Positions 2,202 to 17,896 of a stretch of 17,896 nt of DNA are shown piece by piece. This DNA comes from a virus. The notes under the pieces were generated by a model. The model was not told the DNA's origin and made no database searches. It was given only the letters and a program-made list of their open reading frames with translations. How positions within the stretch are numbered: the first letter of the stretch is position 1; every line of letters starts with the position of its first letter. Location: the UHGV virus genome UHGV-0103875; one strand, 5' to 3'. Both the position numbers and the translations under genes were made by a program.

Positions 2202-2923
2202 TAAGCAGCCTCCCCGGTTACTTTCAGCATCCCGTTATCGAGCAGCTTTCTGGTCAGCCACTGTTGACCACGCCCGGTGATTTTTGTGGTGAACGATATC
2301 TGTATTCCGTGATTTGTGTTGACCGCTGTTTCTTTCACTGTGAAATAGCCGCGATCCATATATTCCTGCATTGGCACATTGCGCCGGGAACCTGAAGCAA
2401 TTAGGATTTTGTGATCGCGCATCCACGCAAACAGCTTGTTCGGACCAATACCGACAACCTTTGCAAAGTTTCCAATCAAAATTCCGCTGGCCTCGCCAAC
2501 GCGATCGGCAAACTCAACTTTAGGTGCGGCAATTGCGAGCTGGTTTTCCAGTTGCATTTTCTGCTCAGCAAGATCAGCAGCAAGGCGCAACGCTTCCGGT
2601 AGCGTTTTGGGGATATTAACCGCAGCTTCTTCAAGCTCTCGCCAGCGGTCAACAAGGCGAGCGGTGAACTCTGGCGACAACTGGGCGACAACGACAATAC
2701 TGTCTCGCTTACCTTGTTCGCCCTCGAAGACGTAATGCTCGTACTGAACATTGAACCCTAAGTTATTGATTCTTTCGGAAACCTCAATTTGAGGAAGCCG
2801 GATAACACCATTTTTAGCCAGCGTTTCGATGGTACGTTTCACATTGTCATGACGCTTACCCACCAACTCAGCGATTTCAATGCTTGTCATTTTGATGGCA
2901 TTGCCATTTATTAACTCATTCAT
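2201..2923 (-). CDS. Rha-family regulator / KilAC-domain antirepressor-like protein (alternative start at 2890)
   Basis: 240 aa. N-terminus SIEIAELVGKRHDNVKRTIETL is Rha-like HTH; C-terminal half (…GNFAKVVGIGPNKLFAWMRDHKIL…) resembles the KilA-C/Ant domain. RBS GAGGAAGAAG precedes ATG at 2923. Overlaps the ninF stop. Confidence 0.65.
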   Translation of the reverse strand: MNELINGNAIKMTSIEIAELVGKRHDNVKRTIETLAKNGVIRLPQIEVSERINNLGFNVQYEHYVFEGEQGKRDSIVVVAQLSPEFTARLVDRWRELEEAAVNIPKTLPEALRLAADLAEQKMQLENQLAIAAPKVEFADRVGEASGILIGNFAKVVGIGPNKLFAWMRDHKILIASGSRRNVPMQEYMDRGYFTVKETAVNTNHGIQISFTTKITGRGQQWLTRKLLDNGMLKVTGEAA

Positions 2924-3092
2924 CGTCTTCTTCCTCGTACATTGAGCTATTCGGATCGCTCATCAGTTCTGTACAGCACGCTTCACATACATGAACTTCC
3001 AGCACATGCAGCTTCTGACCGCAGTTAGCGCACGTTAAAGCCCGCTCGACGCTTTCTTTCTGGTATTGGAGGGATTGGGATGGGATAAGCAT
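2916..3092 (-). CDS. ninF: NinF
   Basis: 58-aa product [58 protein letters not shown], near-identical to remembered lambda NinF. The ORF-track extension upstream is not needed. Confidence 0.85.
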   Translation of the reverse strand: MLIPSQSLQYQKESVERALTCANCGQKLHVLEVHVCEACCTELMSDPNSSMYEEEDDE

Positions 3093-3492
3093 GGCTTTCA
3101 CCATTAAAAAGTCGCTTGTAAGCATCAATGTCTCGTTTTGCTTCACCAAGCTTTCGTCTTAATTCCATGTTTTCTGATTCAAGCTTTTCCATGTCTTGCT
3201 GGTATCGATCGCGGTGTTCTTTCCATGCTTTTTGATACGCCTTCATGTATGTCATGTTGGCCTTTCTCTTTGCCTGACGAACTGCGTGGTGGTTTTTAAC
3301 AAACCAGTCAGGGTCGTTAAATGCTGCTCTGGCGCATGTATACCAATAATTTGTTGCCTCCCTGTTTAGCCAATAAATACTGATAAATGGCAACCGGATA
3401 GACACCATTTTTCGTTGTGACTCTTTCTCGCCAAACATGTGCCCTTTTTTGATGCTAAGGCCAAATCCAGGTTGAATTAAAAGCATTGTCAT
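3025..3492 (-). CDS. Hypothetical nin-region protein (155 aa), proline-rich C-terminus
   Basis: ATG at 3492..3490 overlaps the ninE stop (ATGA). Product [11 protein letters not shown]…[21 protein letters not shown]. Overlaps the ninF start by about 68 nt in another frame. No family recognised. Confidence 0.45.
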
Positions 3493-3665
3493 TTCCTCGC
3501 ACGATGTCTTAGCCACCGGATATCCCACAGGTGAGCCGTGTAGTTGAAGGTTTTTACGTCAGATTCTTTTGGGATTGGCTTGCGTTTATTTCTGGAGCGC
3601 TTCGTTGGAAGGTATTTGCAGTTTTCGCAGATGATGTCGGTGATACTTCGTCGCTGTCGTCTCAT
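3489..3665 (-). CDS. ninE: NinE
   Basis: [58 protein letters not shown] matches remembered lambda NinE. Start at internal ATG 3665, ATGA-coupled to the methyltransferase stop. Confidence 0.85.
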
Positions 3666-4189
3666 GCTGCCCTCCTGACGCCCTGCCCGATCGCCATCAA
3701 TGCCGCTTTGGATACGGTAGTAAACATCCGTCGAGGACTGATGAACGGTCGCCAAATCAGCAGCATGGAACCTTTGCTGTTTCCCTTCTTCTCCAGCCCT
3801 GTCGATGGTTCGATAAAATTAATCCGTCCATCAGTGATGATGCGAACTTCGTCAACACTCTCCAGAGCCTTGCTGAACCATCCGACTGACATATCCTCTG
3901 GCACAAGCATAACTACCGTCTGTCGCTGTTGTATGCACTGCTCAGCGGCTTTTTCCACCCACGGCCTGATATTGCTGTACGGTGGGTTATTCCAGATTGC
4001 ACCGTGGCTTATCCACTCAGAATTTAGCGCGTCGTCGGCCTCAGTTAACCAGTGAGCGCACAGAGCATTTTTGTCGCTCGCTGCCGAATCCAGCCAGAAT
4101 CCAAACTCAATATCCAGTGCATCAAAAAGCCAAAGCGGCGTTTGCCAGCAGTCCTTGTCGTGTGCTGGCGTATTTGATTTGATAGTCAT
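3662..4189 (-). CDS. Phage DNA N6-adenine methyltransferase (Dam-like, NPPY motif)
   Basis: 175 aa from ATG 4189. Contains the catalytic motif IWNNPPYS and N-terminal [16 protein letters not shown] typical of phage Dam-family MTases. ATGA-coupled to ninB upstream and ninE downstream. Confidence 0.75.
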
Positions 4190-4702: not shown

Positions 4703-7168
4703 TCAGAATCCTCCTTTCTTCTTGGATTGCGGTTCCTCGCGTTCACGGCGGCGCATTTCAGCAGACTGTTGGTCTGTGTCATAAATAGCGCCATTTGCCT
4801 GAATGCAATACACCGTGCCGGTATTGCCATGACGATTGAGACGAAGGATTAGTTCGGTTTCACCAGGTGGAACACTGTCATCAAAAGCACCTTCACGATG
4901 GATCCCCACCCAATAATCGCAATCCTGTTCAATCTGCCCTGTATCTCGTGAGTCACTTGGTAATGGGCGTTTATTGGTTCGGCTTTCCAGTGCGCGGTTA
5001 AGCTGTGTCAGAAGCACAACAACGCAATCAAGCTCTTTGGCAAGGTTCTTCAGTCCTTTGGTGATCATGCCGTAAGCAAGGTCGTTGCGATCGGCCTTTT
5101 CAGCGGTCATTAGTGTCAGGTAATCGACCAGAATCATGCCAACACATCCTTTTTCTCGCTTGATTCGACGGCTTTCGCTGACGATTTGAGCCAGAGATAA
5201 TCCCGGCGTGTCGTCGATGTAAAGCATGTCGATTTCACTCAAGCGATTGGCTGTTTCGATCGCCCTGTTGAAGTCACCATCGTAATCACCCTGATAGCCG
5301 TCATCAGCGTCATTTGTCGCCGGAAGGTAAAAAATATTCGGGTTAACACCAGACTTCTGCCCTACCAGTTTTTCCAGTATCTGGTCACCTGGCATTTCAA
5401 GGCTGAACATCAGAGCGGGCTTTTTCTCATGCACTGCGCAGTTGATTGCCATCTGGCTGTATAGCGTGGTGTTGTGGGTTAGAATGTATCCGTCAGTTGC
5501 ATACAAATGTCTCTCGTGGGATACCATGATGCAAATGCACTCTTCACGTCCAATATACTCAACCGACGTGATAACAGGCGCACTTGTTTTGATGCGTTTT
5601 GCAGTGAATTTTTGCTTCAGGCGTGGAGATTTTATGTGTGATAGAACCTCATCAGGCAACCTGATTGCGCAAATATGGGCATCCATACCTTTGCGCATTT
5701 CTCCCTTATAACTGAATTTCGGCTCCTGTTTGGTTGTCATACGACACACGCCACCAAGAGAATGCACCAGCCGCTTTACACCATCTGACAGGAACTTGCT
5801 TGCCGAGCTAAAGCGCAGGGCATTATTTCCTTCAACCCAACCATCGGTTTCAAGTAATCCGCATAGAACATCAATACGAGTTTGCTTATCAGCAGAAAAA
5901 ATAATATCCGGGATAATTTTAATCTCTGACATCCGGCCGTAGATACCAAGCCGTTGCATAACCCGCGTAAGAGATAATTTGCGGCTAAACTTGTGAGATA
6001 GGGAGTAATCGCAGCCAGAAACATGCCTGACTTCAATATCGTCACCCACTTCAGATCTTACTCGCTCAATGATGTATGGTTCCGTCATGCTGATTCGTGG
6101 CGTACCTGCAAGATTTCCATCGCCAAGTAACGCACCTAACAGCCATGGGCTAATCCCTAAATCAACAGGCAATCCGAAGTCACCGCTAATACCAGGAACA
6201 TGAATGCGGCTTTGATAGCGAACGCATTCCATCATGTCCCGTAGGCGGCAGGTGTCTACAACATCAACGCCACCGGTAATACGGTTACTATGAATTTCCC
6301 ACAAATGATCATCCGCGCAATCAACGGTTCTTCCGTCAGAGAACGTAACTCGGTAAATATCTCGCTCCCCTTGAGGAAAAACTCCAGACACGAATGATGG
6401 TTGTCCATCCACTGATGCTAGGGAATCTCCAACACATACGTCACGAAATGTTGTCCATGAACCATCAGCAAGCAAAATGCGTGAATTAAGCGGTTGCGCT
6501 TTCCCCATCTTAGGGCGAGCGCCAATGACGAACAGAGAGCCTTTCACCAGACCTTTCGGTGACAGCATCCTGTCCAGAGATGGGATCCCTGTGCTCATTC
6601 CTCGTTGTTCGCCTGACGGGTCAAATCGCTTCTCAAGGTCGCTAACCCAGTCTTCCATGACCTCACCAAATGAGCGAAGGCCGCGACGCGATCCGGTTTT
6701 TGCATGGTCTGTCAGTTGCGTGAAAATCGCCTGAATAGCTTCGTACTTCTGCGTCGCAGTCATTCCGTTGCGGGAATAGAGCAATTCCGTCGCTTCAGTC
6801 ATGCGGTTGATGGCGTAGCGTTCCATTGCGGTTTCGCGAACCTGCATTGCATAGGCAACGATGTTTGCGGCGCTTGCCGTGTTCTTTGCGATCTCAGCGA
6901 TATAAGCAAAACCGCCAACAGACGCCGTTAACGATTTACGCTCCAGTTCACCGAAAAGCGTCAGGCCATCTACTGGCTTTTGCTCCCGGTGCATTCTGGT
7001 TATTTCTTCGAAAAGGATTTTGTGTGGTCGGCTGTAAAATGAATCAGGCTTCAGCATCGCCAGAACTTTCTGGACGCGCTCACTGCTGTCATCATCCAGA
7101 AGCAATCCACCAATCACCGCCTGCTCTGCCTCGATGCTATGGGGCGGCGCATAAAAATTATCGGTCAT
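4703..7168 (-). CDS. DnaB-family replicative helicase (P22 gp12-like, replaces lambda P) interrupted by an intein; ORF track gives a GTG start at 7183, first ATG is at 7168
   Basis: N-terminus PPHSIEAEQAVIGGLLLDD…FYSRPHKILFEE…VGGFAYIAEIAKNTASAANI is colinear with remembered E. coli DnaB. Walker A GARPKMGK is split from TTLYSQMAINCAV…MFSLEMPG by 343 residues. C-terminal half has DnaB motifs (ILVDYLTLM, LTQLNRALESR, GQIEQDCDYW). Confidence 0.85.
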   Translation of the reverse strand: MTDNFYAPPHSIEAEQAVIGGLLLDDDSSERVQKVLAMLKPDSFYSRPHKILFEEITRMHREQKPVDGLTLFGELERKSLTASVGGFAYIAEIAKNTASAANIVAYAMQVRETAMERYAINRMTEATELLYSRNGMTATQKYEAIQAIFTQLTDHAKTGSRRGLRSFGEVMEDWVSDLEKRFDPSGEQRGMSTGIPSLDRMLSPKGLVKGSLFVIGARPKMGKAQPLNSRILLADGSWTTFRDVCVGDSLASVDGQPSFVSGVFPQGERDIYRVTFSDGRTVDCADDHLWEIHSNRITGGVDVVDTCRLRDMMECVRYQSRIHVPGISGDFGLPVDLGISPWLLGALLGDGNLAGTPRISMTEPYIIERVRSEVGDDIEVRHVSGCDYSLSHKFSRKLSLTRVMQRLGIYGRMSEIKIIPDIIFSADKQTRIDVLCGLLETDGWVEGNNALRFSSASKFLSDGVKRLVHSLGGVCRMTTKQEPKFSYKGEMRKGMDAHICAIRLPDEVLSHIKSPRLKQKFTAKRIKTSAPVITSVEYIGREECICIMVSHERHLYATDGYILTHNTTLYSQMAINCAVHEKKPALMFSLEMPGDQILEKLVGQKSGVNPNIFYLPATNDADDGYQGDYDGDFNRAIETANRLSEIDMLYIDDTPGLSLAQIVSESRRIKREKGCVGMILVDYLTLMTAEKADRNDLAYGMITKGLKNLAKELDCVVVLLTQLNRALESRTNKRPLPSDSRDTGQIEQDCDYWVGIHREGAFDDSVPPGETELILRLNRHGNTGTVYCIQANGAIYDTDQQSAEMRRREREEPQSKKKGGF
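5471..6499 (-). mobile_element. Intein (343 aa) with LAGLIDADG homing-endonuclease domain, inserted in the helicase P-loop; candidate class 3 (Ala1, W-C-T triad)
   Basis: Insert begins AQPLNSRILLADGSW immediately after GARPKMGK and ends …ATDGYILTHN followed by Thr (HN/T C-terminal splice junction). Two LAGLIDADG-type motifs inside (WLLGALLGDGNL and LCGLLETDGWV). Block B has …DDHLW, block F …CICIMV, block G GYILTHN, consistent with a Trp/Cys/Thr class 3 arrangement. Flanks rejoin to GARPKMGK-TT, restoring a canonical GKT P-loop. Confidence 0.75.
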
Positions 7169-8057
7169 CGTGTTCACCCTCACGAACTTTCAGGTAGGTA
7201 TTATCGTTAAGCAGGAAATCAAATCCCTTTTTGTGCCAGACGGTTCCGCGCTGATGGTTTTGGCGCTCTTCGAACATCCATCGGCAATTTTCGCCTACGT
7301 AGCTCAAATAATTTCTCCAGTCCTGCATCGTGAACCCATGCCCGTCAAGCTGGCGGGTTATCACTCCGGCTTTGCGCCAGAACGTTCGGATCTGGTTTTT
7401 ACGCTTGTCATTCAGTGCGCGGATTTTTGGCGCTTCAGGAAGGATTTCGTGGTAAGCATCGACAACATCCTGACAGCTAACGGAAGGTTTTTTCTTGTCA
7501 GACTTTTTGTCTGCTGCGGTACTCTCTAATACGTCAGTATTAGAGATAATATTATTATATTCTTTATCTGTGGTAATTTGCTGGTAATCTGCTGGTACAG
7601 TATTGCTTGCAGGCATTGGTATTGCTGGCTTTGAGGTGGTAATTTGCTGGTAATCTGCTGGTACAAAATTTGACTGATAATCGTCATATTTCTCTACCGA
7701 GAAAACTGAGAATTTACCGTGTGAAACCCAGTCAATCATGCCGAGTTTTTTGAACTTTCTAAGCAGGTACTGAACGCGATCTGGTTTGAGTCCTGTTTCA
7801 AACGCCAGAGAGTTTCTACCGCCAAGTAGCTTCCCTCTGCCTACCAGAATTTCTCCTGCGTCAGTCATTACATACTCAGGCGTATGCTTTGCTTTGAGGA
7901 TTAAGTGAACCCACAGATGCGCAGCTTCTGCGTCCTTGTAAAACGGCACATCCATAATTTTACGGTGCAGCAAGGCATACCCCTTACCGCTGCTTTGATG
8001 CGGTTGTTGTAGCCTTCTGGCCTCTCTGGCTTCGGCTAGATTAGATATGTTACTCAT
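7158..8057 (-). CDS. Replication initiator (lambda O / P22 gp18 functional analogue) containing the origin iterons
   Basis: 299 aa; position between cII and the helicase. Central peptide repeat [10 protein letters not shown] x2 is encoded by the DNA iterons. RBS AGGAGAAAGG before ATG 8057. Confidence 0.7.
7541..7667. repeat. Candidate replication origin: direct iterons (TGCTGGTAA/C-type, two copies of a ~30-bp unit GTGGTAATTTGCTGGTAATCTGCTGGTACA) with adjacent AT-rich tract
   Basis: Unit GGTAATTTGCTGGTAATCTGCTGGTACA occurs at ~7573-7600 and ~7638-7665; each holds two TGCTGGTA sub-repeats; a degenerate copy ATTGCTGGC at ~7621. AT-rich stretch AGAGATAATATTATTATATTCTTTATCTG at 7541-7569 lies on the downstream side in the O reading direction, as in lambda ori. 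Confidence 0.65.
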
Positions 8058-8925: not shown

Positions 8926-9642
<717 letters not shown>

Positions 9643-9792
9643 TGGGCAAGGTGTTCTGGTCGGCGCATAGCTGGTGAAAAAATTATTTAATGCGGTGTAT
9701 TGGCTGATTGTAACCCCATGTAACATCTTGCCGTCACCATTTCGGTGGTTAGATTTTTAATAAAAAAAAACAAATGTATAGCAAGGTTTTTT

Positions 9793-10272
9793 ATGGATAA
9801 AATTAATTACCCACCCCTGTTTGAGCCAGGGTTCCATGACATGGATGAAGCTGGATTAAAATCGTATTGTGTCGATTGCTTTCCTTCATCATCCAGGCGA
9901 GGCATGCTATACTGTAATTTTATACAGCTACTCGAATCTATTCGAGAATTATCTGCTCAATATGGCTGTTTTACAGAAATATGGGTTGATGGTTCATACA
10001 CCACGTCTAAACCAGAGCCTGATGATATTGATATTTTGTTGGTATGTGACTATAGCAATATAAACTCAATACCTGTCATGCTTCGGGGCCGCGTCGATAA
10101 TTTGCTTGACCGAAACTACATCAAACAAAACTACAAAATTGATGTCCTACTACTCATGAAGAATTTAGATGACCCTAACTATGATTATGAGTACTGGCGT
10201 AGTTACTGGCGCGGTTGGTTTGGTTTTGATCGCAGTGAAAACCCGAAAGGGTTAGTGAGGATTTTTTTATGA
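9793..10272 (+). CDS. Hypothetical protein, gene A of the rex-slot cassette (~159 aa); possible minimal nucleotidyltransferase-fold protein
   Basis: First ATG at 9793 with AAGG six nt upstream; ORF track extends to GTG 9745. Contains WVDGSYTTSKPEPDDIDILLV, fitting the Pol-beta NTase pattern hG[GS]-x9-13-DhDh. Also CVDC…C. AT-rich compared with the flanking cI. Not RexA. Confidence 0.55.
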   Translation: MDKINYPPLFEPGFHDMDEAGLKSYCVDCFPSSSRRGMLYCNFIQLLESIRELSAQYGCFTEIWVDGSYTTSKPEPDDIDILLVCDYSNINSIPVMLRGRVDNLLDRNYIKQNYKIDVLLLMKNLDDPNYDYEYWRSYWRGWFGFDRSENPKGLVRIFL

Positions 10273-11201
10273 ATGATAAATCAATGTTTAAAAATTGCGA
10301 TAAACGCATTGATTTCATTCAAAAAGAAGTCGATGCAATGAAGCAAAACAAAACCAGGTCCTTTGCTGACATGCTTCTTTATCGCTCCATGGATTCTCAT
10401 CTGAGCGATTTGAAGGCCGAAAAATTAAAGCAAGATAGTCGGCACCCACTTATCGATTTTTTTGAGCTGCGGCTGAAAGGCTCTGAGGTTGACTTTGGCT
10501 CTATTCCTTTAGAGCTGCTTGGGGCTATTTCAACAAATCTTGCAGCGCTAATACAAAGAGCAACACACAAAATTGCCTCAGGCAAGGACTCAAAAAAAGT
10601 TCCCTACGACGTGAAAAGCTCCTTAAACCTCAGGCTGGCTGATTTATCCCCTGGGTCTACAAAATTGGGCGTCACCTTCTCTACAGGAATAGCAGAATTA
10701 GTAGAAACAGTACCCAGCAAGGCTGTAAAAGGCATATTCGATTTGTTGTTAAGCGATGACGACAACAACTTCATGAATCACGTCGCTGAAATTGGATACA
10801 ATTCCACTGTAAGCCTTAAGAGAATCGTAGAGGAATGCGATAAACACAACTTAACATTTGATGCAAGTTGGACCGGTCCATTTAGTAATGGCACCAAGGT
10901 GGCAACTATTGACTCCAATAAAATTAAGTACTTGGTGAGTAGACTTACATCAACCATTTCATCCCCTCCCATTACTGAAACGGTTACAGGCGAACTGGTC
11001 GTTCTATCCAAATATGGGAAGCTGGAGCTTGATGTTGGTGGTGAACATTTAAAGGCTTCCTATCCGATTGAAATGCTAGATTTAATACAAAAAAAACACA
11101 AGGTCGGACAGATTGTTTCTCTTTTAGTGGAGACTACTGAGATTCACAATGATCGCATAGGTCTGTACCGTAAAAACCATCTTGTTAAATCGGTTCTTTA
11201 A
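10269..11201 (+). CDS. Hypothetical protein, gene B of the rex-slot cassette (310 aa), no recognised domain
   Basis: ATG overlaps the gene A stop (ATGA). Soluble-looking, Lys/Ser/Leu-rich, AT-rich codons. No RexB-like transmembrane pattern and no HEPN Rx4-6H motif found by eye. Confidence 0.6.
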   Translation: MNDKSMFKNCDKRIDFIQKEVDAMKQNKTRSFADMLLYRSMDSHLSDLKAEKLKQDSRHPLIDFFELRLKGSEVDFGSIPLELLGAISTNLAALIQRATHKIASGKDSKKVPYDVKSSLNLRLADLSPGSTKLGVTFSTGIAELVETVPSKAVKGIFDLLLSDDDNNFMNHVAEIGYNSTVSLKRIVEECDKHNLTFDASWTGPFSNGTKVATIDSNKIKYLVSRLTSTISSPPITETVTGELVVLSKYGKLELDVGGEHLKASYPIEMLDLIQKKHKVGQIVSLLVETTEIHNDRIGLYRKNHLVKSVL

Positions 11202-11518: not shown

Positions 11519-11690
11519 AGCATTCAAAGCAGAAGGCTTTGGGGTGTGGTGAAGGGTTCATGGATGGGAATATGTCGCACGTAAAGCGGCGAGGCCTGCG
11601 GAACTATTGCCGAATTGAAGTCGGCCGAAGCAGGTCGAAATGGGTCTCCCACCTACCACACCACCAAAGCTAACTGACAGGAGAATCAAG

Positions 11691-12017
11691 ATGGATGCAC
11701 AAACACGCCGCCGCGAACGTCGCGCAGAGAAACAGGCTCAATGGAAAGCAGCAAATCCCCTGTTGGTTGGGGTAAGCGCAAAACCAGTTAACCGCCCTAT
11801 TCTCTCGCTGAATCGCAAACCGAAATCACGAGTAGAAAGCGCACTGAATCCGATAGACCTTACGGTGCTGGCTGAATACCACGAACAGATTGAAAGCAAC
11901 CTGCAACGTATTGAGCGCAAGAATCAGCGCACATGGTACAGCAAGCCACGCAGTGAAATGGGTGTGACTTGTGTTGGTCGCCAGAAAATGAAATTAGGCA
12001 GCAAACCACTTATTTGA
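11691..12017 (+). CDS. N: Antitermination protein N (lambda type); upstream ORF-track extension rejected
   Basis: From ATG 11691: MDAQTRRRERRAEKQAQWKAANPLLVGVSAKPVNRPILSLNRKPKSRVESALNPIDLTVLAEYHEQIESNLQRIERKNQRTWYSKP…, with the arginine-rich boxB-binding motif at the N-terminus. Confidence 0.95.
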   Translation: MDAQTRRRERRAEKQAQWKAANPLLVGVSAKPVNRPILSLNRKPKSRVESALNPIDLTVLAEYHEQIESNLQRIERKNQRTWYSKPRSEMGVTCVGRQKMKLGSKPLI

Positions 12018-12496: not shown

Positions 12497-12639
12497 TACA
12501 AATAAGCACTGTGTATTCATTCCAACGAGTGAATACACGGAGCAATGTCGCTCGTAACTAAACAGGAGCCGACTTGTTCTGATTATTGGAAATCTTCTTT
12601 GCCCTCCAGTGTGAGGGCAATTTTTTTAACGGGGGAAAT

Positions 12640-13608
12640 ATGAGTGAAGTAACAGATTTAGTTGTTATTGAAAAAGCAAATGCAATGACTGTATTTCAGT
12701 CTGCCGATCAGATTGAAGAAATCCTTCAAAAGGTTGAACGTGAAGTTATGTCCTTTGTGCCTGATATCACAACGGCAAAGGGAAGAAAGGAGATCGCTTC
12801 TCTGGCGTATAAAGTTGCGCAGACGAAAACATATCTCGATGGTCTTGGCAAAGACCTTGTTGCTGAACTGAAGGAAATTCCAAAGCTAATTGATGCTAAC
12901 CGCAAGACAGTGCGTGATCGCCTTGATGAGCTGAAAGCCAAGGCACGCCAGCCTCTTACTGATTATGAGGAAGAACAGGCGCGGATTAAAGCCGAAGAAG
13001 AAGCTAAGGCAGCAGCTGAAGCTCTCGCAAAGCAAATTGAGTCTGACCATGAAATAGCGATTTTGATGGATCGCGAATTTGACCGCCAAAGAGAAGAGGC
13101 AAGACTCAAAGCGGAGCAGGAAAAGCGAGAGCATGAAGAACGCTTAAAAAGAGAAGCTGAAGAGAAAGCCAGAGCTGAAGCCGAAGCAAAGGCAAAAGCC
13201 GAAATTGAAGCAGCAGCAAGGCGAGAAGCAGAAGCTAAGGCCGCAGCGGAACGTGCAGAGCGTGAACGCATTGAAGCCGAGCAACGAGCACAGCGCGAAG
13301 CAAAAGAGGCAGCAGAACGAGCTGAAAGAGAAAAGCAGGCAGCAATTGAAGCAGAACGCCGAAAAGCACAGGAGGAGGCAGAACGAATCCGGCGCGAGGC
13401 TGAAGCAAAAGAGCAAGCCAGAATAGCAGAAGAAAAAAGAATCAAGGACGAAGAAGAGCGTAGAGCAAAGGATAAAGCTCACCGGAGAGAAGTAAATAAC
13501 AAAATACTTGCTGACCTTATCAAGGTTGGCGCATCAGAAGATGTTGCTAAAAATATCATAATAGCCATCGCAAAAGGCGAAGTATTCGCAACAAAAATAA
13601 CCTACTAA
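12640..13608 (+). CDS. Highly charged coiled-coil protein (~322 aa) with long E/A/K/R-rich repeat region
   Basis: Start ATG 12640 preceded by GGGGGAA; the ORF-track N-terminal extension is rejected. Central ~180 aa are quasi-repeats of AEAKAKAEIEAAARREAEAKAAAERAERE… flanked by ordinary N- and C-terminal segments. Confidence 0.6.
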   Translation: MSEVTDLVVIEKANAMTVFQSADQIEEILQKVEREVMSFVPDITTAKGRKEIASLAYKVAQTKTYLDGLGKDLVAELKEIPKLIDANRKTVRDRLDELKAKARQPLTDYEEEQARIKAEEEAKAAAEALAKQIESDHEIAILMDREFDRQREEARLKAEQEKREHEERLKREAEEKARAEAEAKAKAEIEAAARREAEAKAAAERAERERIEAEQRAQREAKEAAERAEREKQAAIEAERRKAQEEAERIRREAEAKEQARIAEEKRIKDEEERRAKDKAHRREVNNKILADLIKVGASEDVAKNIIIAIAKGEVFATKITY

Positions 13609-13885: not shown

Positions 13886-14070
13886 TTCCGGTAGAACTGG
13901 CGAAAACTCCAGAGTTAAGTCGATTAAAAAGAGAATATCACATTGCTGAGGCTCGTTACTGGCGTAAAGCGGGAGATAAATCAAAGAAACAACTTTGTTT
14001 ATGGCAGGCGCAAAGAGAGCGCATGAATGAGCGCGAATTTCTTTCCTCCCCATCCGAATTACCATTCTGA
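13882..14070 (+). CDS. Hypothetical small protein (62 aa)
   Basis: ATG 13882 with GGAGG five nt upstream and ATGA overlap with the kil-like stop. Basic, helical-looking (…RLKREYHIAEARYWRKAGDKSKK…). Confidence 0.45.
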   Translation: MIPVELAKTPELSRLKREYHIAEARYWRKAGDKSKKQLCLWQAQRERMNEREFLSSPSELPF

Positions 14071-14078
14071 GGTGAATT

Positions 14079-14759
14079 ATGGGAACTGCGACATTAATAC
14101 TCGGTGAATCTGGCACCGGAAAATCAACCAGCATGAGAAATATCAATCCAGAGGAAGCAATACTTATAAAACCAATAGGCAAGCCGCTTCCATTTAAATC
14201 AAAAGACTGGCTGGCATGGGATGCCAGAGCAAAAAAAGGAACCGTAGTTACCACTGACAAATGGGACGTAATAGTTGCCGTAATTAAGCGTGCTCACGAA
14301 TACGGGAAAAGAATCGTTATTGTTGATGACTTCCAGTATGTGATGAGCAATGAGTTTATGCGCCGCTCAGAAGAAAAGTCGTTTGATAAATTCACTGAGA
14401 TAGGCCGTCACGCATGGGAGGTCATTAAGGCTGCACAGGATGCGCCTGATGACCTGAGAGTCTATTTTCTTGCGCACACCGAAGAAACTCCTATGGGGCG
14501 TGTGAAAATGAAGACTATCGGCAAAATGCTGGACGAGAAAATCACTGTCGAAGGCATGTTTACTATAGTTCTTCGCACCCTTACCCGTGATGACCAGTTC
14601 TTTTTCACCACAAAAAACAACGGTGCAGACACTGTTAAATCCCCAATGGGAATGTTTGACTCCAATGAGATTGATAACGATCTCTCTTTCGTCGATACCA
14701 CTATTTGTGATTACTACGGCATCAATAATGATCATCAAATTAAGGAAAACGCCGCATGA
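14079..14759 (+). CDS. RecA-like P-loop ATPase, candidate Sak4-type single-strand annealing/recombination protein
   Basis: Walker A GESGTGKST at residues 9-17 and Walker B RIVIVDDF; ~226 aa, the size of core-only RecA-like phage Sak4 proteins. Occupies the position of lambda Red. Confidence 0.5.
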   Translation: MGTATLILGESGTGKSTSMRNINPEEAILIKPIGKPLPFKSKDWLAWDARAKKGTVVTTDKWDVIVAVIKRAHEYGKRIVIVDDFQYVMSNEFMRRSEEKSFDKFTEIGRHAWEVIKAAQDAPDDLRVYFLAHTEETPMGRVKMKTIGKMLDEKITVEGMFTIVLRTLTRDDQFFFTTKNNGADTVKSPMGMFDSNEIDNDLSFVDTTICDYYGINNDHQIKENAA

Positions 14760-15343
14760 GCAACGTGATTTTTACTTATAACGAAGAAGCAGCACTGACC
14801 GCAGGGCAAGGTGGTTTTATTAACGAAACTGGCGCTCATATCATTACCATTACTGAAGCAGAACTAAAGCAATCAGAAAAAGGAGCCAAATTTATTGAGT
14901 TTTCTGGCGAATCCGACGACGGACGTAAAATCCAATATCTTAGCGTCTGTGTTCAGAAAAATGACGGAACGGAAAACAAATTTGGCGCAAATGTCGTTCA
15001 CGCCATGATGGGGTGTGCCGGGATTGGACAATTAACGCAGCATATGGTTTCCGCCAGTAAATTTGTTGCTCCTGAGTTTCACGGAAAGAAAATCGGGTTA
15101 GTGCTACAGAAAGTATTAACCACAAACAAAAAGACTGGTGCAGACAGTTACCAGATGGAAATACGCATCCCGTTTATTGCACAAACAGGTCAAACACTTA
15201 AAGAAAAGGCGGAAGGCAAGCAACCAGAAACTATCGCCAACATGGTTGCCAGCCTCAAAGATAAAGACAATCGCTCTAAAAACGTAAGCCAGAATCATGC
15301 AGATGATTATGGTTACAGCCAGAACGATTACCCTCCTTTCTGA
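14756..15343 (+). CDS. Putative SSB-like partner protein (195 aa) with acidic C-terminal tail ending DYPPF
   Basis: ATGA-coupled to the ATPase. The C-terminus …HADDYGYSQNDYPPF resembles the SSB interaction tail (DDDIPF). Body is not recognisably a canonical OB-fold by eye. Confidence 0.35.
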   Translation: MSNVIFTYNEEAALTAGQGGFINETGAHIITITEAELKQSEKGAKFIEFSGESDDGRKIQYLSVCVQKNDGTENKFGANVVHAMMGCAGIGQLTQHMVSASKFVAPEFHGKKIGLVLQKVLTTNKKTGADSYQMEIRIPFIAQTGQTLKEKAEGKQPETIANMVASLKDKDNRSKNVSQNHADDYGYSQNDYPPF

Positions 15344-15366
15344 TTACTGAAAATAAGGCTCCCATT

Positions 15367-15663
15367 ATGCCAGCGCCTCTGTATGGTGCGGATGACGCTC
15401 GCCGCTGTTCCGGCAATTCCATATCGGAGGTGCTGGAAAATATCAAGAATAATCTCGACGCGTTTCTTGCTCTGCCACCAGAAACAAAAGAAGAACGGAA
15501 GTACCGACGCGATATACAACTCGCAGAAAAACAGGAAAAAGACAGAATAAACGAAACATCAATCCGACCATTCCGCAAATTCACATATACCCACTTCCCT
15601 GAATATATCGACCCGCGCCTGCGTAATTACCGCTCACGCTATGGCGCTATCAGTAATGACTGA
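15367..15663 (+). CDS. Hypothetical protein (98 aa)
   Basis: Complete ORF in the same orientation as the operon; no recognised motifs. Confidence 0.4.
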
Positions 15664-15673
15664 GGAATTTACC

Positions 15674-15841
15674 ATGAGAGGACTTGCATACAATCCCGGC
15701 ATTCTTCCGGCAGAAATGATTATTCACCAACGCGTAAAGCCAATGCCATCGAGAGAAGAATTGCTTAAGAGAAATAGTTTCGGTTCTGTTAATGACAACA
15801 AATATCTGAATGCGATGCGGCGCAAAGGAGGCAACCAGTGA
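15674..15841 (+). CDS. Hypothetical small protein (55 aa from ATG 15674)
   Basis: GAGGA RBS seven nt upstream of ATG 15674. C-terminus …RRKGGNQ is encoded by the conserved junction module shared with the next cassette boundary. Confidence 0.4.
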
Positions 15842-16563
15842 GCGAAATTAACTATAAAGAACTGCGCGAGGCGGCGAAACAGGCAACGCAAGATGAATGG
15901 GTAGCATATATTTTGCCGGGTCATAACGGCATTTATCCTGCGCGCACGTCTGAGGGTAGGCATTGCGGATACTTTATTGACTGGCCTAGCGTCTGTCAGG
16001 GGCGGGAGAGCATCAACATGAGCATCAGAACCTACGCAGTGAATTGCAATGACGCATGGCTAAACACCGAAGGTGATGACATCTCCGGCTCATACGTTAA
16101 GTACAAAGACCATCAGGAAGTGGTTGCCGCTCTTGAGGCCAAGTGCGCGGCGCTGGCGGCGGAGAATGAGCTGGCTCGTAAGGCAGTTCAGGCATTCTGC
16201 GATGTTGTTGGCGACAACACCGAGGTTATCGCTGAGGAGGTTGGGCGAGATGGCGTTCTGGTTATTTTGGGGGCCATGAAGGCAACAGGAAATATTTCAG
16301 CCACCGATGCTTTTCTGGCTGAAATTCGTGCGGAAGCACGCAACGAGGGGATTAACTATACCGCCAGCCGTCTTGCTGCTGCGTTCAATCACGGATTTAT
16401 CAATAAATCTTTGCGTGAAGTTTTCGACGTTACACGCATGATTTTGTCAGCGAAAGAAGAGTTGGCTAATGAACCGCATCCGATTGATGGCCTGTCCGGT
16501 GAATATGCGGAGAAATCCCTTGAAGAATGGGCGGAACAGATTCGCAAAGGAGGCAAGCAGTGA
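15838..16563 (+). CDS. Ead/Ea22-like protein (241 aa), GTG start
   Basis: GTG 15838 with AAGGAGG six nt upstream and GTGA overlap with the preceding stop. N-terminus [21 protein letters not shown] is the Ead/Ea22-type signature and is paralogous to the ORF at 16861. Confidence 0.6.
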
Positions 16564-16859
16564 GTGTATATCTTATTGATAAACGTCGACGTGGGCAACA
16601 AATACCACCTGTAGGAATTCCGAATCACACATGGTTTTGCGTACTTGATATCGATGGTATGGATGCGTTGGTTGACACTCGTCATTACTGCGATACCGCA
16701 ACAGCTACTCCGGCGAAAGCAAAGAAAATGGCTGCTCTGATAGAAAACTGGACTCCACCTGATGGTTGGTGCAATGGGAATGATCGAGATTGGCATGAAA
16801 AAATGAAGGGCTATATCTGCGATTTCTTACGTAAATGCAACGGATTCAGGGTGATGTGA
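16560..16859 (+). CDS. Hypothetical protein (99 aa), GTG start
   Basis: GTG 16560 with AAGGAGG upstream and GTGA overlap, an exact structural repeat of the 15838 junction. Cys/Trp/His-containing product (…WFCVLD…HYCDT…WCNGNDRDWHEKM…). Confidence 0.5.
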   Translation: MSVYLIDKRRRGQQIPPVGIPNHTWFCVLDIDGMDALVDTRHYCDTATATPAKAKKMAALIENWTPPDGWCNGNDRDWHEKMKGYICDFLRKCNGFRVM

Positions 16860-16860
16860 C

Positions 16861-17358
16861 ATGAACAAGATTGACTATCAGGCACTGCGTGAGGCGGCAG
16901 AGAAGGCAACGTGGGGAGACTGGGACTCATATAAACCACACCGTGGCGCACGTGGTTATGAGGTCCGACTAAGTAGTCAGGCCATTGCGCAACACGTTCT
17001 GAAAAACAACGCTGAATTTATTGCTGCCTTTAATCCAAAGATTGCTTTGGCACTACTGGATGAACGGGAAAGGAACCAGCAATACATCAAACGCCGCGAC
17101 CAAGAGAACGAGGATATTGCGCTAACGGTAGGGAAGCTGCGCGTTGAGCTTGAAGCAGAAAAACAGCGGGCAAAAGTTCTATTTATGGAAAATGCTCGGC
17201 TTAAGTCAGGCATAGCCGGTCTGATACACCTCGGTATTCGATATGCAGATGTTGAGGTCATGAAAATTGCTGGAGATGCCCAGCTTTCTACCCCATGCAC
17301 TGACAGCATCATAAATAGCATTACAGCAGGTATTTTCACCAAAGAGGGGGCAGCATGA
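16861..17358 (+). CDS. Ead/Ea22-like protein (165 aa)
   Basis: N-terminus MNKIDYQALREAAEKATWGDWD is paralogous to the 15838 ORF; coiled-coil middle (…LRVELEAEKQRAKVLFMENARLK…). Confidence 0.6.
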   Translation: MNKIDYQALREAAEKATWGDWDSYKPHRGARGYEVRLSSQAIAQHVLKNNAEFIAAFNPKIALALLDERERNQQYIKRRDQENEDIALTVGKLRVELEAEKQRAKVLFMENARLKSGIAGLIHLGIRYADVEVMKIAGDAQLSTPCTDSIINSITAGIFTKEGAA

Positions 17359-17543
17359 TGAGAACTATAGAAGTTCGCGCTGAGGACGTAATACCTGGTG
17401 ATGTGGTCATAACATCTAAAGGTCAACAATGTGCGGTTAAATCTTTCTGGATGGACGGTGACAAAGTGACTCTGTTCGGTACGGATGGTTCCGAAACGGA
17501 TTATGACTACGACGAATTGCTTGTTGTTGAGAGAGCTGCCTAA
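17355..17543 (+). CDS. Hypothetical small protein (62 aa)
   Basis: ATGA overlap with the upstream stop; complete ORF; acidic C-terminus. Confidence 0.4.
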   Translation: MMRTIEVRAEDVIPGDVVITSKGQQCAVKSFWMDGDKVTLFGTDGSETDYDYDELLVVERAA

Positions 17544-17896
17544 TGACCACCTTTACCAAAGAACAGTTAATCTCCCATGCACGCGAAAGCGTTAGTTATC
17601 TGGAAAACTTGAAAGGACGTGTTAGCAAAGAAGGTGCGGACTGCAAAGTTGTTCTTGAGATGGTTGAACGAGATCTAGAACTGGCACGAATTGCACTGGC
17701 ATCACTGGAAGCAGAGCTGATAGGTTTCCGTTGCAGGCGCAATGATAACCTTGGTGATTGGAGTTACGTATATCATCGAGAGCCAGATGATTTTGAGCGC
17801 AAACATTTAGTGATAGAGGGCATTTACGCCGCCCCTCCAGAGCCGGTAGTGCCGGAAGAAGCAACTCCGGAAAACGTAGAAATGCTCTCTGGCTAT
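17543..17896 (+). CDS. Hypothetical protein, 5' part; gene continues beyond the window end
   Basis: ATG 17543 overlaps the preceding TAA (TAATG). Open frame with no stop to the window end: MTTFTKEQLISHARESVSYLENLKGRVSKEGADCKVVLEMVERDLELARIALASLEAELIGFRCRRNDNLGDWSYVYHREPDDFERKHLVIEGIYAAPPEP…. Confidence 0.5.
   Translation, partial: MTTFTKEQLISHARESVSYLENLKGRVSKEGADCKVVLEMVERDLELARIALASLEAELIGFRCRRNDNLGDWSYVYHREPDDFERKHLVIEGIYAAPPEPVVPEEATPENVEMLSGY

Follow-up and report, generated by a model that had tools for sequence, protein, structure and literature searches.

A repeated 22-nucleotide translation-initiation linker at accessory-gene boundaries of a lambdoid early-left operon and its probable part in cassette exchange

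The stretch of DNA analyzed here, referred to below as the window, comprises 17,896 nucleotides (nt) of the virus genome UHGV-0103875 and carries the pL (early-left) operon of a lambdoid prophage in the arrangement of HK620 (hkaL-hkaK-hkaJ-hkaI) and Sf6 (genes 25-21). Within this operon, a short element of the form CGCAAAGGAGGCAA[C/G]CAGTGAG, hereafter the linker, is found at 15821-15842 and 16543-16564 as a direct repeat, with 21 of 22 positions identical and a spacing of 722 nt. A prediction made earlier from the letters alone (the original prediction) had noticed two near-identical junctions, each composed of the last codons of the upstream gene (RKGGNQ or RKGGKQ), a strong AAGGAGG Shine-Dalgarno (SD) sequence and a GTG start codon that overlaps the stop codon. 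This description holds at both copies, with the coordinates corrected by 1-2 nt. The features of the locus are the following, with the lengths of proteins given in amino acids (aa).

15674-15841, + strand: DUF2737 gene, 55 aa (PF10930, E=2.7e-29), homologous to HK620 hkaI and Sf6 gene 23
15821-15842, + strand: linker copy 1 (J1), CGCAAAGGAGGCAACCAGTGAG, from the repeat search and the list of open reading frames (ORFs)
15838-16563, + strand: Ead/Ea22-like gene, 241 aa (PF13935, E=1.4e-16, 61.7 bits), called Ead-241 below
15839-15910, + strand: diverged copy of the Ead 5' block, which abuts J1 and forms with it a composite of linker and bsq3-like patch
16543-16564, + strand: linker copy 2 (J2), CGCAAAGGAGGCAAGCAGTGAG, from the repeat search and the ORF list
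16560-16859, + strand: DUF7739 gene, 99 aa (PF24881, E=4.1e-19), a non-Ead cassette whose start codon is the GTG of J2
16861-17358, + strand: second Ead/Ea22-like gene, 165 aa (PF13935, E=1.6e-31, 110.2 bits)
16862-16892, + strand: bsq3-type boundary sequence TGAACAAGATTGACTATCAGGCACTGCGTGA at the 5' end of the second Ead gene, matching Sf6 bsq3 at 30 of 31 positions

Both Ead/Ea22-like genes exceed the PF13935 gathering cut-off of 27 bits, so that the two paralogs of the original prediction are real, but the second of them does not stand behind a linker and instead follows the DUF7739 gene via GTGATGTGACATGA; further small genes come after it. On its left side, the variable cassette region is anchored by the DUF2737 gene, which is conserved. 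In 14000-17896, no promoter-like site is predicted on the + strand and no Rfam match is found at E<=1, and no terminator-like site is predicted at the linker junctions, which indicates that the genes behind the linkers have no promoters of their own and share one transcript; an element with its own promoter or terminator, of the moron or PeSL (promoter and stem-loop) kind, was considered and rejected on these grounds. The 3.9-kb stretch is matched in part by 2,994 of 5,426 complete E. coli genomes, of which only one covers at least 80% of it; the region is thus strongly mosaic.

J1 provides the last codons of the 55-aa DUF2737 ORF (...AMRRKGGNQ*, TGA at 15839-15841), with AAGGAGG at 15825-15831 followed, after 6 nt, by the GTG (15838-15840) of the 241-aa ORF, which overlaps the TGA as GTGA. 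J2 provides the last codons of the 241-aa ORF (...EQIRKGGKQ*, TGA at 16561-16563), with AAGGAGG at 16547-16553, and the GTG at 16560-16562 of the 99-aa DUF7739 ORF again overlaps the TGA. Such a layout, in which AAGGAGG stands 6 nt ahead of a start codon overlapping the stop of the preceding gene, is a strong one for initiation and translational coupling. The GTG starts are supported because the Pfam models align from protein residues 2-3, position 1 of the Ead_Ea22 model falling on residue 2 of the 241-aa protein and position 3 of the DUF7739 model on residue 3. When up to three mismatches were allowed on both strands, exactly two matches to the linker were found in the window and none in 200 dinucleotide-preserving shuffles, and the similarity between the two copies ends at 22 nt, where the flanking codons differ.

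The linker is conserved as nucleotides rather than as a peptide. Frame analysis was carried out on 217 unique contexts containing GGAGGCAACCAGTGA with at most one mismatch. In 171 of these the upstream ORF reads the core as ...KGGNQ*, in about 43 (~20%) the core is read in another frame (...QEATSE...), with the stop codon 4-34 nt later, and in a few no long upstream ORF reads the core in frame. Conservation of the core despite the other reading frame identifies it as a nucleotide (DNA or RNA) element and not a peptide motif. The variants of the linker are few (CGC/CGT, GGC/GGT, AAC/AAG/AAA/AGC, CAG/CGG/CAA and, at times, ATG instead of GTG). Its least variable part, AAAGGAGG, is essentially fixed across contexts, and the spacer CAACCA and the GTGAG are also conserved; since SD function has no need of the latter two, their conservation argues for identity by descent. 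The linker does not fold better than shuffled sequences (z-scores of +1.69, -0.25 and -0.01), and no inverted-repeat symmetry was found in its core. An RNA element was rejected as a candidate, there being no Rfam match at E<=1 and no stable fold.

A search of other phages, which the original prediction had suggested as a check, found the junction widely. The exact sequence AAAGGAGGCAASCAGTGA is present in at least 120 IMG/VR contigs. Two further samples were assembled independently of the motif, through relatives of the flanking genes. Almost all of 80 loci found via DUF2737 end in the linker, with at least 8 different genes following it, and all 55 DUF2737-anchored loci with enough downstream sequence contain one or two cores, on the coding strand only; among 80 loci found via DUF7739, the linker lies upstream in 70, behind at least 12 different gene tails. 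The linker also stands, unannotated, between genes 23 and 22 of Sf6 and between hkaH and hkaG of HK620. In lambda and P22, no linker was found within 4 mismatches; these phages retain the bsq3-like starts of ea22 and eaD, and a relic tail is seen on P22 EaE. The linker belongs to the variable accessory ("ea") part of the pL operon in Escherichia and Shigella prophages of the lambdoid and P22-like kinds. A scan of species-level contigs with an 18-mer gave 58 matches where ~35 were expected by chance in 596 Gb, with only three Escherichia contigs that look genuine, and carries little information on the taxonomic range.

The genes downstream of linkers comprise many Ead variants, DUF7739, DUF7446, methyltransferase-like and PAPS-reductase-domain genes and several without a family. 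The methyltransferase-like cassette (161 aa, MTGHAAILD...), which is not an Ead gene, starts at a linker and ends in ...MKEGNQ* with the linker-like AAGGAGGGCAACCAGTGA, which shows that some cassettes are bounded by linkers on both sides, as is Ead-241 in the window. A second SD-containing linker type, AAGGAGAGTGAnATG, absent from the window, follows upstream proteins that end in ...AGIRIKGE*; across 111 unique contexts, about 40 partners precede it and 33 follow it. Examples are HK620 hkaG/hkaF (locus L342) and the 3' ends of lambda ea22 (L343) and P22 eaD (L345). Its existence indicates that the region uses several linker families.

The sequences on the two sides of the core assort independently. 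In 106 usable junctions, 18 classes of upstream tails (defined by the 20 residues before the shared tail) and 24 downstream classes (defined by the downstream proteins) are seen in 62 combinations. Single-linkage nucleotide clustering of 300-nt flanks was uninformative, as most Ead genes were lumped together via shared internal islands, and short anchored segments were used instead. With positions numbered from the second A of AAAGGAGG, linkage was analyzed in 210 unique contexts. Polymorphic sites at or before -4 are 76-100% explained by the upstream class, and their values for the downstream class stay close to the permutation null; sites at or beyond +18 are 63-98% explained by the downstream class, and the few variable sites inside the core show intermediate linkage to both. 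Among 21,945 pairs of contexts, 14,155 share the linker alone, both flanks being less than 50% identical.

The edges of the core are also where homology breaks. In 1,833 pairs the left flanks are at least 95% identical and the right flanks unrelated; 77% of these pairs begin to diverge at +17 to +19, immediately past the TGA, and a second cluster of breakpoints at +33 and +44 to +55 corresponds to the end of the Ead 5' block. In 962 pairs of the reverse pattern, with the right flanks alike, divergence ends at -5 to -1 in 75%. When the window was compared with 280 loci, the ends of high-scoring segment pairs (HSPs) piled up at both linkers, at other gene boundaries and at conserved islands within Ead genes. 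In many Stx phages, homology to the window ends at 16564.

Empty and filled versions of the same site are found. In five loci (L067, L118, L120, L205 and L211), DUF2737 is joined to DUF7739 by a single linker and the two HSPs overlap by exactly 22 nt; in L118, L205 and L211, window positions 14001-15842 (95%) and 16543-16916 (97%) match adjacent segments with this overlap. Compared with these single-linker phages, the window thus holds an additional Ead cassette of 722 bp, bracketed by the two linkers; this cassette consists of the Ead-241 gene and one linker copy and is present or absent between phages. The block of Ead-241, DUF7739 and Ead is found, 99.4-99.5% identical and starting from 15821/15824, behind a different 78-aa gene in L098 and in the P1-like Punavirus vB_EcoM-813R1 (L340, ON470617, positions 2282-4095; 99.6 kb), where the block is 99.5% identical to window 15824-17163 and the 78-aa gene likewise ends in the linker. 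Identity this high behind a different upstream gene points to recent transfer, and in vB_EcoM-813R1 the block looks like a cross-family transfer. A P1-like origin of the 78-80-aa upstream gene was considered and rejected, since Stx-converting lambdoid phages carry most copies of the gene pair, and its presence in the P1-like phage is exceptional.

The Ead genes contain a boundary sequence of their own. The 5' ends of the two Ead genes of the window are 71% identical over 72 nt (15839-15910 and 16862-16933). The GenBank record of Sf6 (AF547987), which annotates bsq2-bsq4, describes TGAGCAAGATTGACTATCAGGCACTGCGTGA, at the 5' end of the Ead-like gene 21, as a misc_feature "bsq3; boundary sequence", and the match of window 16862-16892 to it means that the Ead N-terminal signature of the original prediction is a boundary sequence that already has a name. 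Wherever a linker is followed by an Ead gene, the last bases of the linker, TGAGC, are the first bases of bsq3, and the similar stretch made up of linker and Ead 5' block is then about 55-75 nt long. The window contains three configurations, namely the linker with a diverged Ead block (J1, with HSP ends piling up at 15840-15890), the linker alone (J2) and the Ead block alone (16862-16892). Inside Ead-241, conserved islands at 16120-16160 and 16280-16330, one of them a coiled-coil segment, coincide with pile-ups of homology end-points, which indicates that Ead genes are internally mosaic. Many of the proteins upstream of linkers form one mosaic Ead-type family with common internal islands and a common tail.

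Upstream of DUF2737, the + strand of the window carries the following genes, with the candidate recombination proteins Sak4 and SSB among them.

8929-9642, + strand: cI-type repressor
11640-12017, + strand: N antiterminator
14079-14759, + strand: Sak4-like annealing ATPase
14756-15343, + strand: SSB
15367-15663, + strand: abc2 anti-RecBCD

The cro, cII and replication genes are on the opposite strand. One of the proteins encoded on the - strand, a DnaB-like replicative helicase of 826 aa (4703-7183), has two DnaB_C stretches and a weak LAGLIDADG_3 match in the middle and may contain an intein. Between the cI repressor and N, at 9745-11201 on the + strand, lie a DUF6932 gene (175 aa) and a gene for a 310-aa protein without a Pfam family, in the slot held in lambda by rexAB; both are candidate prophage-expressed accessory or defence genes. 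A 340-aa protein rich in E, A, K and R (phrog_1376; 12586-13608, + strand) contains several internal imperfect direct repeats of 21-37 nt.

Taken together, these observations make it probable, in our view, that the 22-nt repeat is a portable translation-initiation junction that doubles as a short homology patch for cassette exchange. The linker would act as the translation-initiation region of the downstream gene, made up of AAGGAGG, a 6-nt spacer and a GTG that overlaps the upstream TGA. Promoterless cassettes would therefore be translated by coupling within one long transcript. Because the same ~22 nt stand before many genes, they would also offer a short patch of identity for homologous or short-homology recombination, and recombination at this patch would swap, insert or delete whole genes while regenerating an intact stop codon, SD and start codon each time. 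The linker joined to the Ead 5' block (~55-75 nt) would possibly be a more effective substrate than the 22 nt. The identical patch, the independent flanks, the breakpoints at its edges and the one- and two-copy sites have the form of a footprint of homology-guided exchange, and they suggest that recombination at the patch, and not selection after random joining, made the pattern. The proposal of the original prediction that a conserved linker mediates modular exchange is thus supported by the 62 combinations and the edge breakpoints, and we infer that the linker causes exchange rather than just marking the points at which it took place.

The enzymes that act on the linker are likely to be phage annealing proteins, although RecA would be another candidate. 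A Sak4/SSB pair is encoded 1-2 kb upstream of the linkers, and relatives encode Red-beta or Erf. Phage annealing proteins recombine short or diverged sequences (PMC3945230, PMC2327257), phage Rad52-like recombinases and Sak4 anneal such sequences (PMC3945230, PMC5928155), and the Sak4/SSB pair has been studied in HK620 (PMC5928155).

Several points weigh against this interpretation. A stretch of 22 nt is short for efficient homologous recombination, and the case for exchange at the linker is built on its footprint in the compared sequences. The loci were chosen either through the motif or through close relatives (at least 91% identity) of the flanking genes, so that the counts come from a single clade and lack phylogenetic independence. 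Selection in favor of a strong SD with overlapping stop and start codons adds to the conservation of the core and is not fully separable from descent. In the codons for F-A-A-Q-L-R, immediately before the core, variation is mostly at third positions and tracks the upstream gene, and this similarity is protein-level conservation in the mosaic Ead-type family, not an exchanged patch. Finally, linker-free boundaries are found in the region at HK620 hkaI/hkaH, in 9 of the 80 DUF7739 loci, in lambda and in P22, and the linker is therefore not required for mosaic joints. In HK620, hkaI is without a linker and runs at its 3' end into the inner part of an Ead-family gene (...AEWEEMKQMSLIEMDG...; L342, 3986-4150 and 3507-3989), a joint that does not lie at a boundary sequence.

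Such linker-free joints are also what would be expected if the 22-mer were conserved purely as a very good initiation and coupling signal, with illegitimate joints formed anywhere, selection keeping those at gene boundaries, and the 22-mer being convergent or travelling with one neighbor. The near-perfect SD at 6-nt spacing and the invariance of AAAGGAGG fit this explanation, and published work treats random joining with later selection as the main alternative (PMC3029335, PMC3945230). We nevertheless consider it unlikely, since the spacer and the GTGAG, which SD function does not demand, are conserved too, the core travels with neither neighbor (linkage switches inside it, and the 14,155 pairs have nothing else in common), and the empty and filled sites with their exact 22-nt overlap are the signature of a homology-guided event.

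A protein-level role in the Ead family of a C-terminal motif, ...AAQLRKGGNQ, of which the nucleotide repeat would be a by-product, draws on the third-position wobble of the F-A-A-Q-L-R codons and on the many upstream proteins that share an island and tail in one mosaic family. It is very unlikely in view of the ~20% of contexts that keep the same nucleotides in another upstream frame, the non-synonymous variation of the N position (N, K or S) next to invariant SD bases, and the presence of the core on unrelated proteins (DUF2737, the 80-aa protein) and on non-coding upstream sequence. The cassettes, being promoterless, single-gene and bounded by a repeated site, also resemble targets of integron-like site-specific recombination, an explanation that is hardly credible for a sequence that lacks inverted-repeat symmetry, a fold and an Rfam counterpart, lies inside coding sequence always in one orientation and has no dedicated recombinase linked to it in the window. 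That the repeat arose by recent tandem duplication within this genome or by chance, as two direct copies 722 nt apart might suggest, can be dismissed on the shuffles, the end of similarity at 22 nt (the original prediction had named a duplication including flanking coding sequence as a ground for refuting its linker proposal), the exact insertion/deletion, the pairwise flank comparison and the recurrence of the same core in hundreds of other contexts.

The view of the linker as a junction that doubles as a homology patch places it among known systems as a further example of the "boundary sequences" proposed for lambdoid phages by Susskind and Botstein and by Clark, and the concept itself is not new. 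Clark et al. (2001; HK620, J Mol Biol 311:657) reportedly described seven boundary sequences. The linker shares with these a length of tens of bp between dissimilar, unrelated flanks, a position at gene or module boundaries of the lambdoid early region, and joints that coincide with it while the flanks assort. It differs in being a 22-nt SD and stop-start element without a bsq annotation in the Sf6 and HK620 records, and in preceding many non-Ead genes as well. The later literature credits the idea to Clark 2001 and to Susskind & Botstein 1978 (PMC3029335, PMC2327257, PMC3945230) and presents boundary sequences, common to genomes with unrelated flanks, as a proposed focus of homologous recombination (PMC3029335, PMC2327257). 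Neither the peptide RKGGNQ nor the core nucleotide string was found in the literature text searched, which excluded Clark 2001.

For Ea22/Ead proteins of the exo-xis region, the published work concerns protein domain mosaicism and a pro-lysogenic function, not an intergenic linker (PMC10834534, PMC7093339). The PF13935 genes of the window resemble these mosaic proteins in having an N-terminal segment, a coiled coil and interchangeable C-terminal parts, whereas lambda ea22 ends in the other junction (...IRIKGE*). Repeated short regulatory sequences between small accessory genes, with proposed shuffling by homologous recombination, are known as PeSL in T4-type phages (PMC2839356); those consist of a promoter and a stem-loop between genes, whereas the linker, which has no promoter, stem-loop or terminator of its own, is a ribosome-binding site with overlapping stop and start codons inside coding sequence. 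Like integron cassettes with their attC sites, the cassettes described here are promoterless single genes inserted one way into an expressed array, but the linker is not a hairpin-forming site, no IntI-like gene is found in the window, and exchange is more readily explained by homology.

The linker reveals no new kind of system. Its interest lies in the long debate on whether phage mosaicism arises via recombination at short conserved sequences or by random joining and selection (PMC3945230, PMC3029335), in which it is an unusually clean and abundant case for the former, with a 22-nt patch, hundreds of contexts, an empty/filled pair and an adjacent Sak4/SSB pair, and this combination makes the question directly testable. 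As a sequence tag, the linker can also be used to delimit and catalogue those accessory genes of E. coli prophages, Stx-converting ones included, that are still poorly known, such as methyltransferase-like, PAPS-reductase-like, DUF7446 and DUF7739 genes and many Ead variants. A more far-reaching possibility, which we put forward tentatively and with more doubt than confidence, is that the linker, beyond being left over from earlier exchanges, is a selected "plug-and-play" standard which, in one family of SD-containing stop/start junctions with the ...IRIKGE* type and bsq3, would turn the pL accessory region into a homology-based gene-cassette system that phage annealing proteins would drive, a functional analogue of the integron. 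If so, host-takeover and anti-defence genes would be swapped as frame-safe units among lambdoid, P22-like and even P1-like phages.

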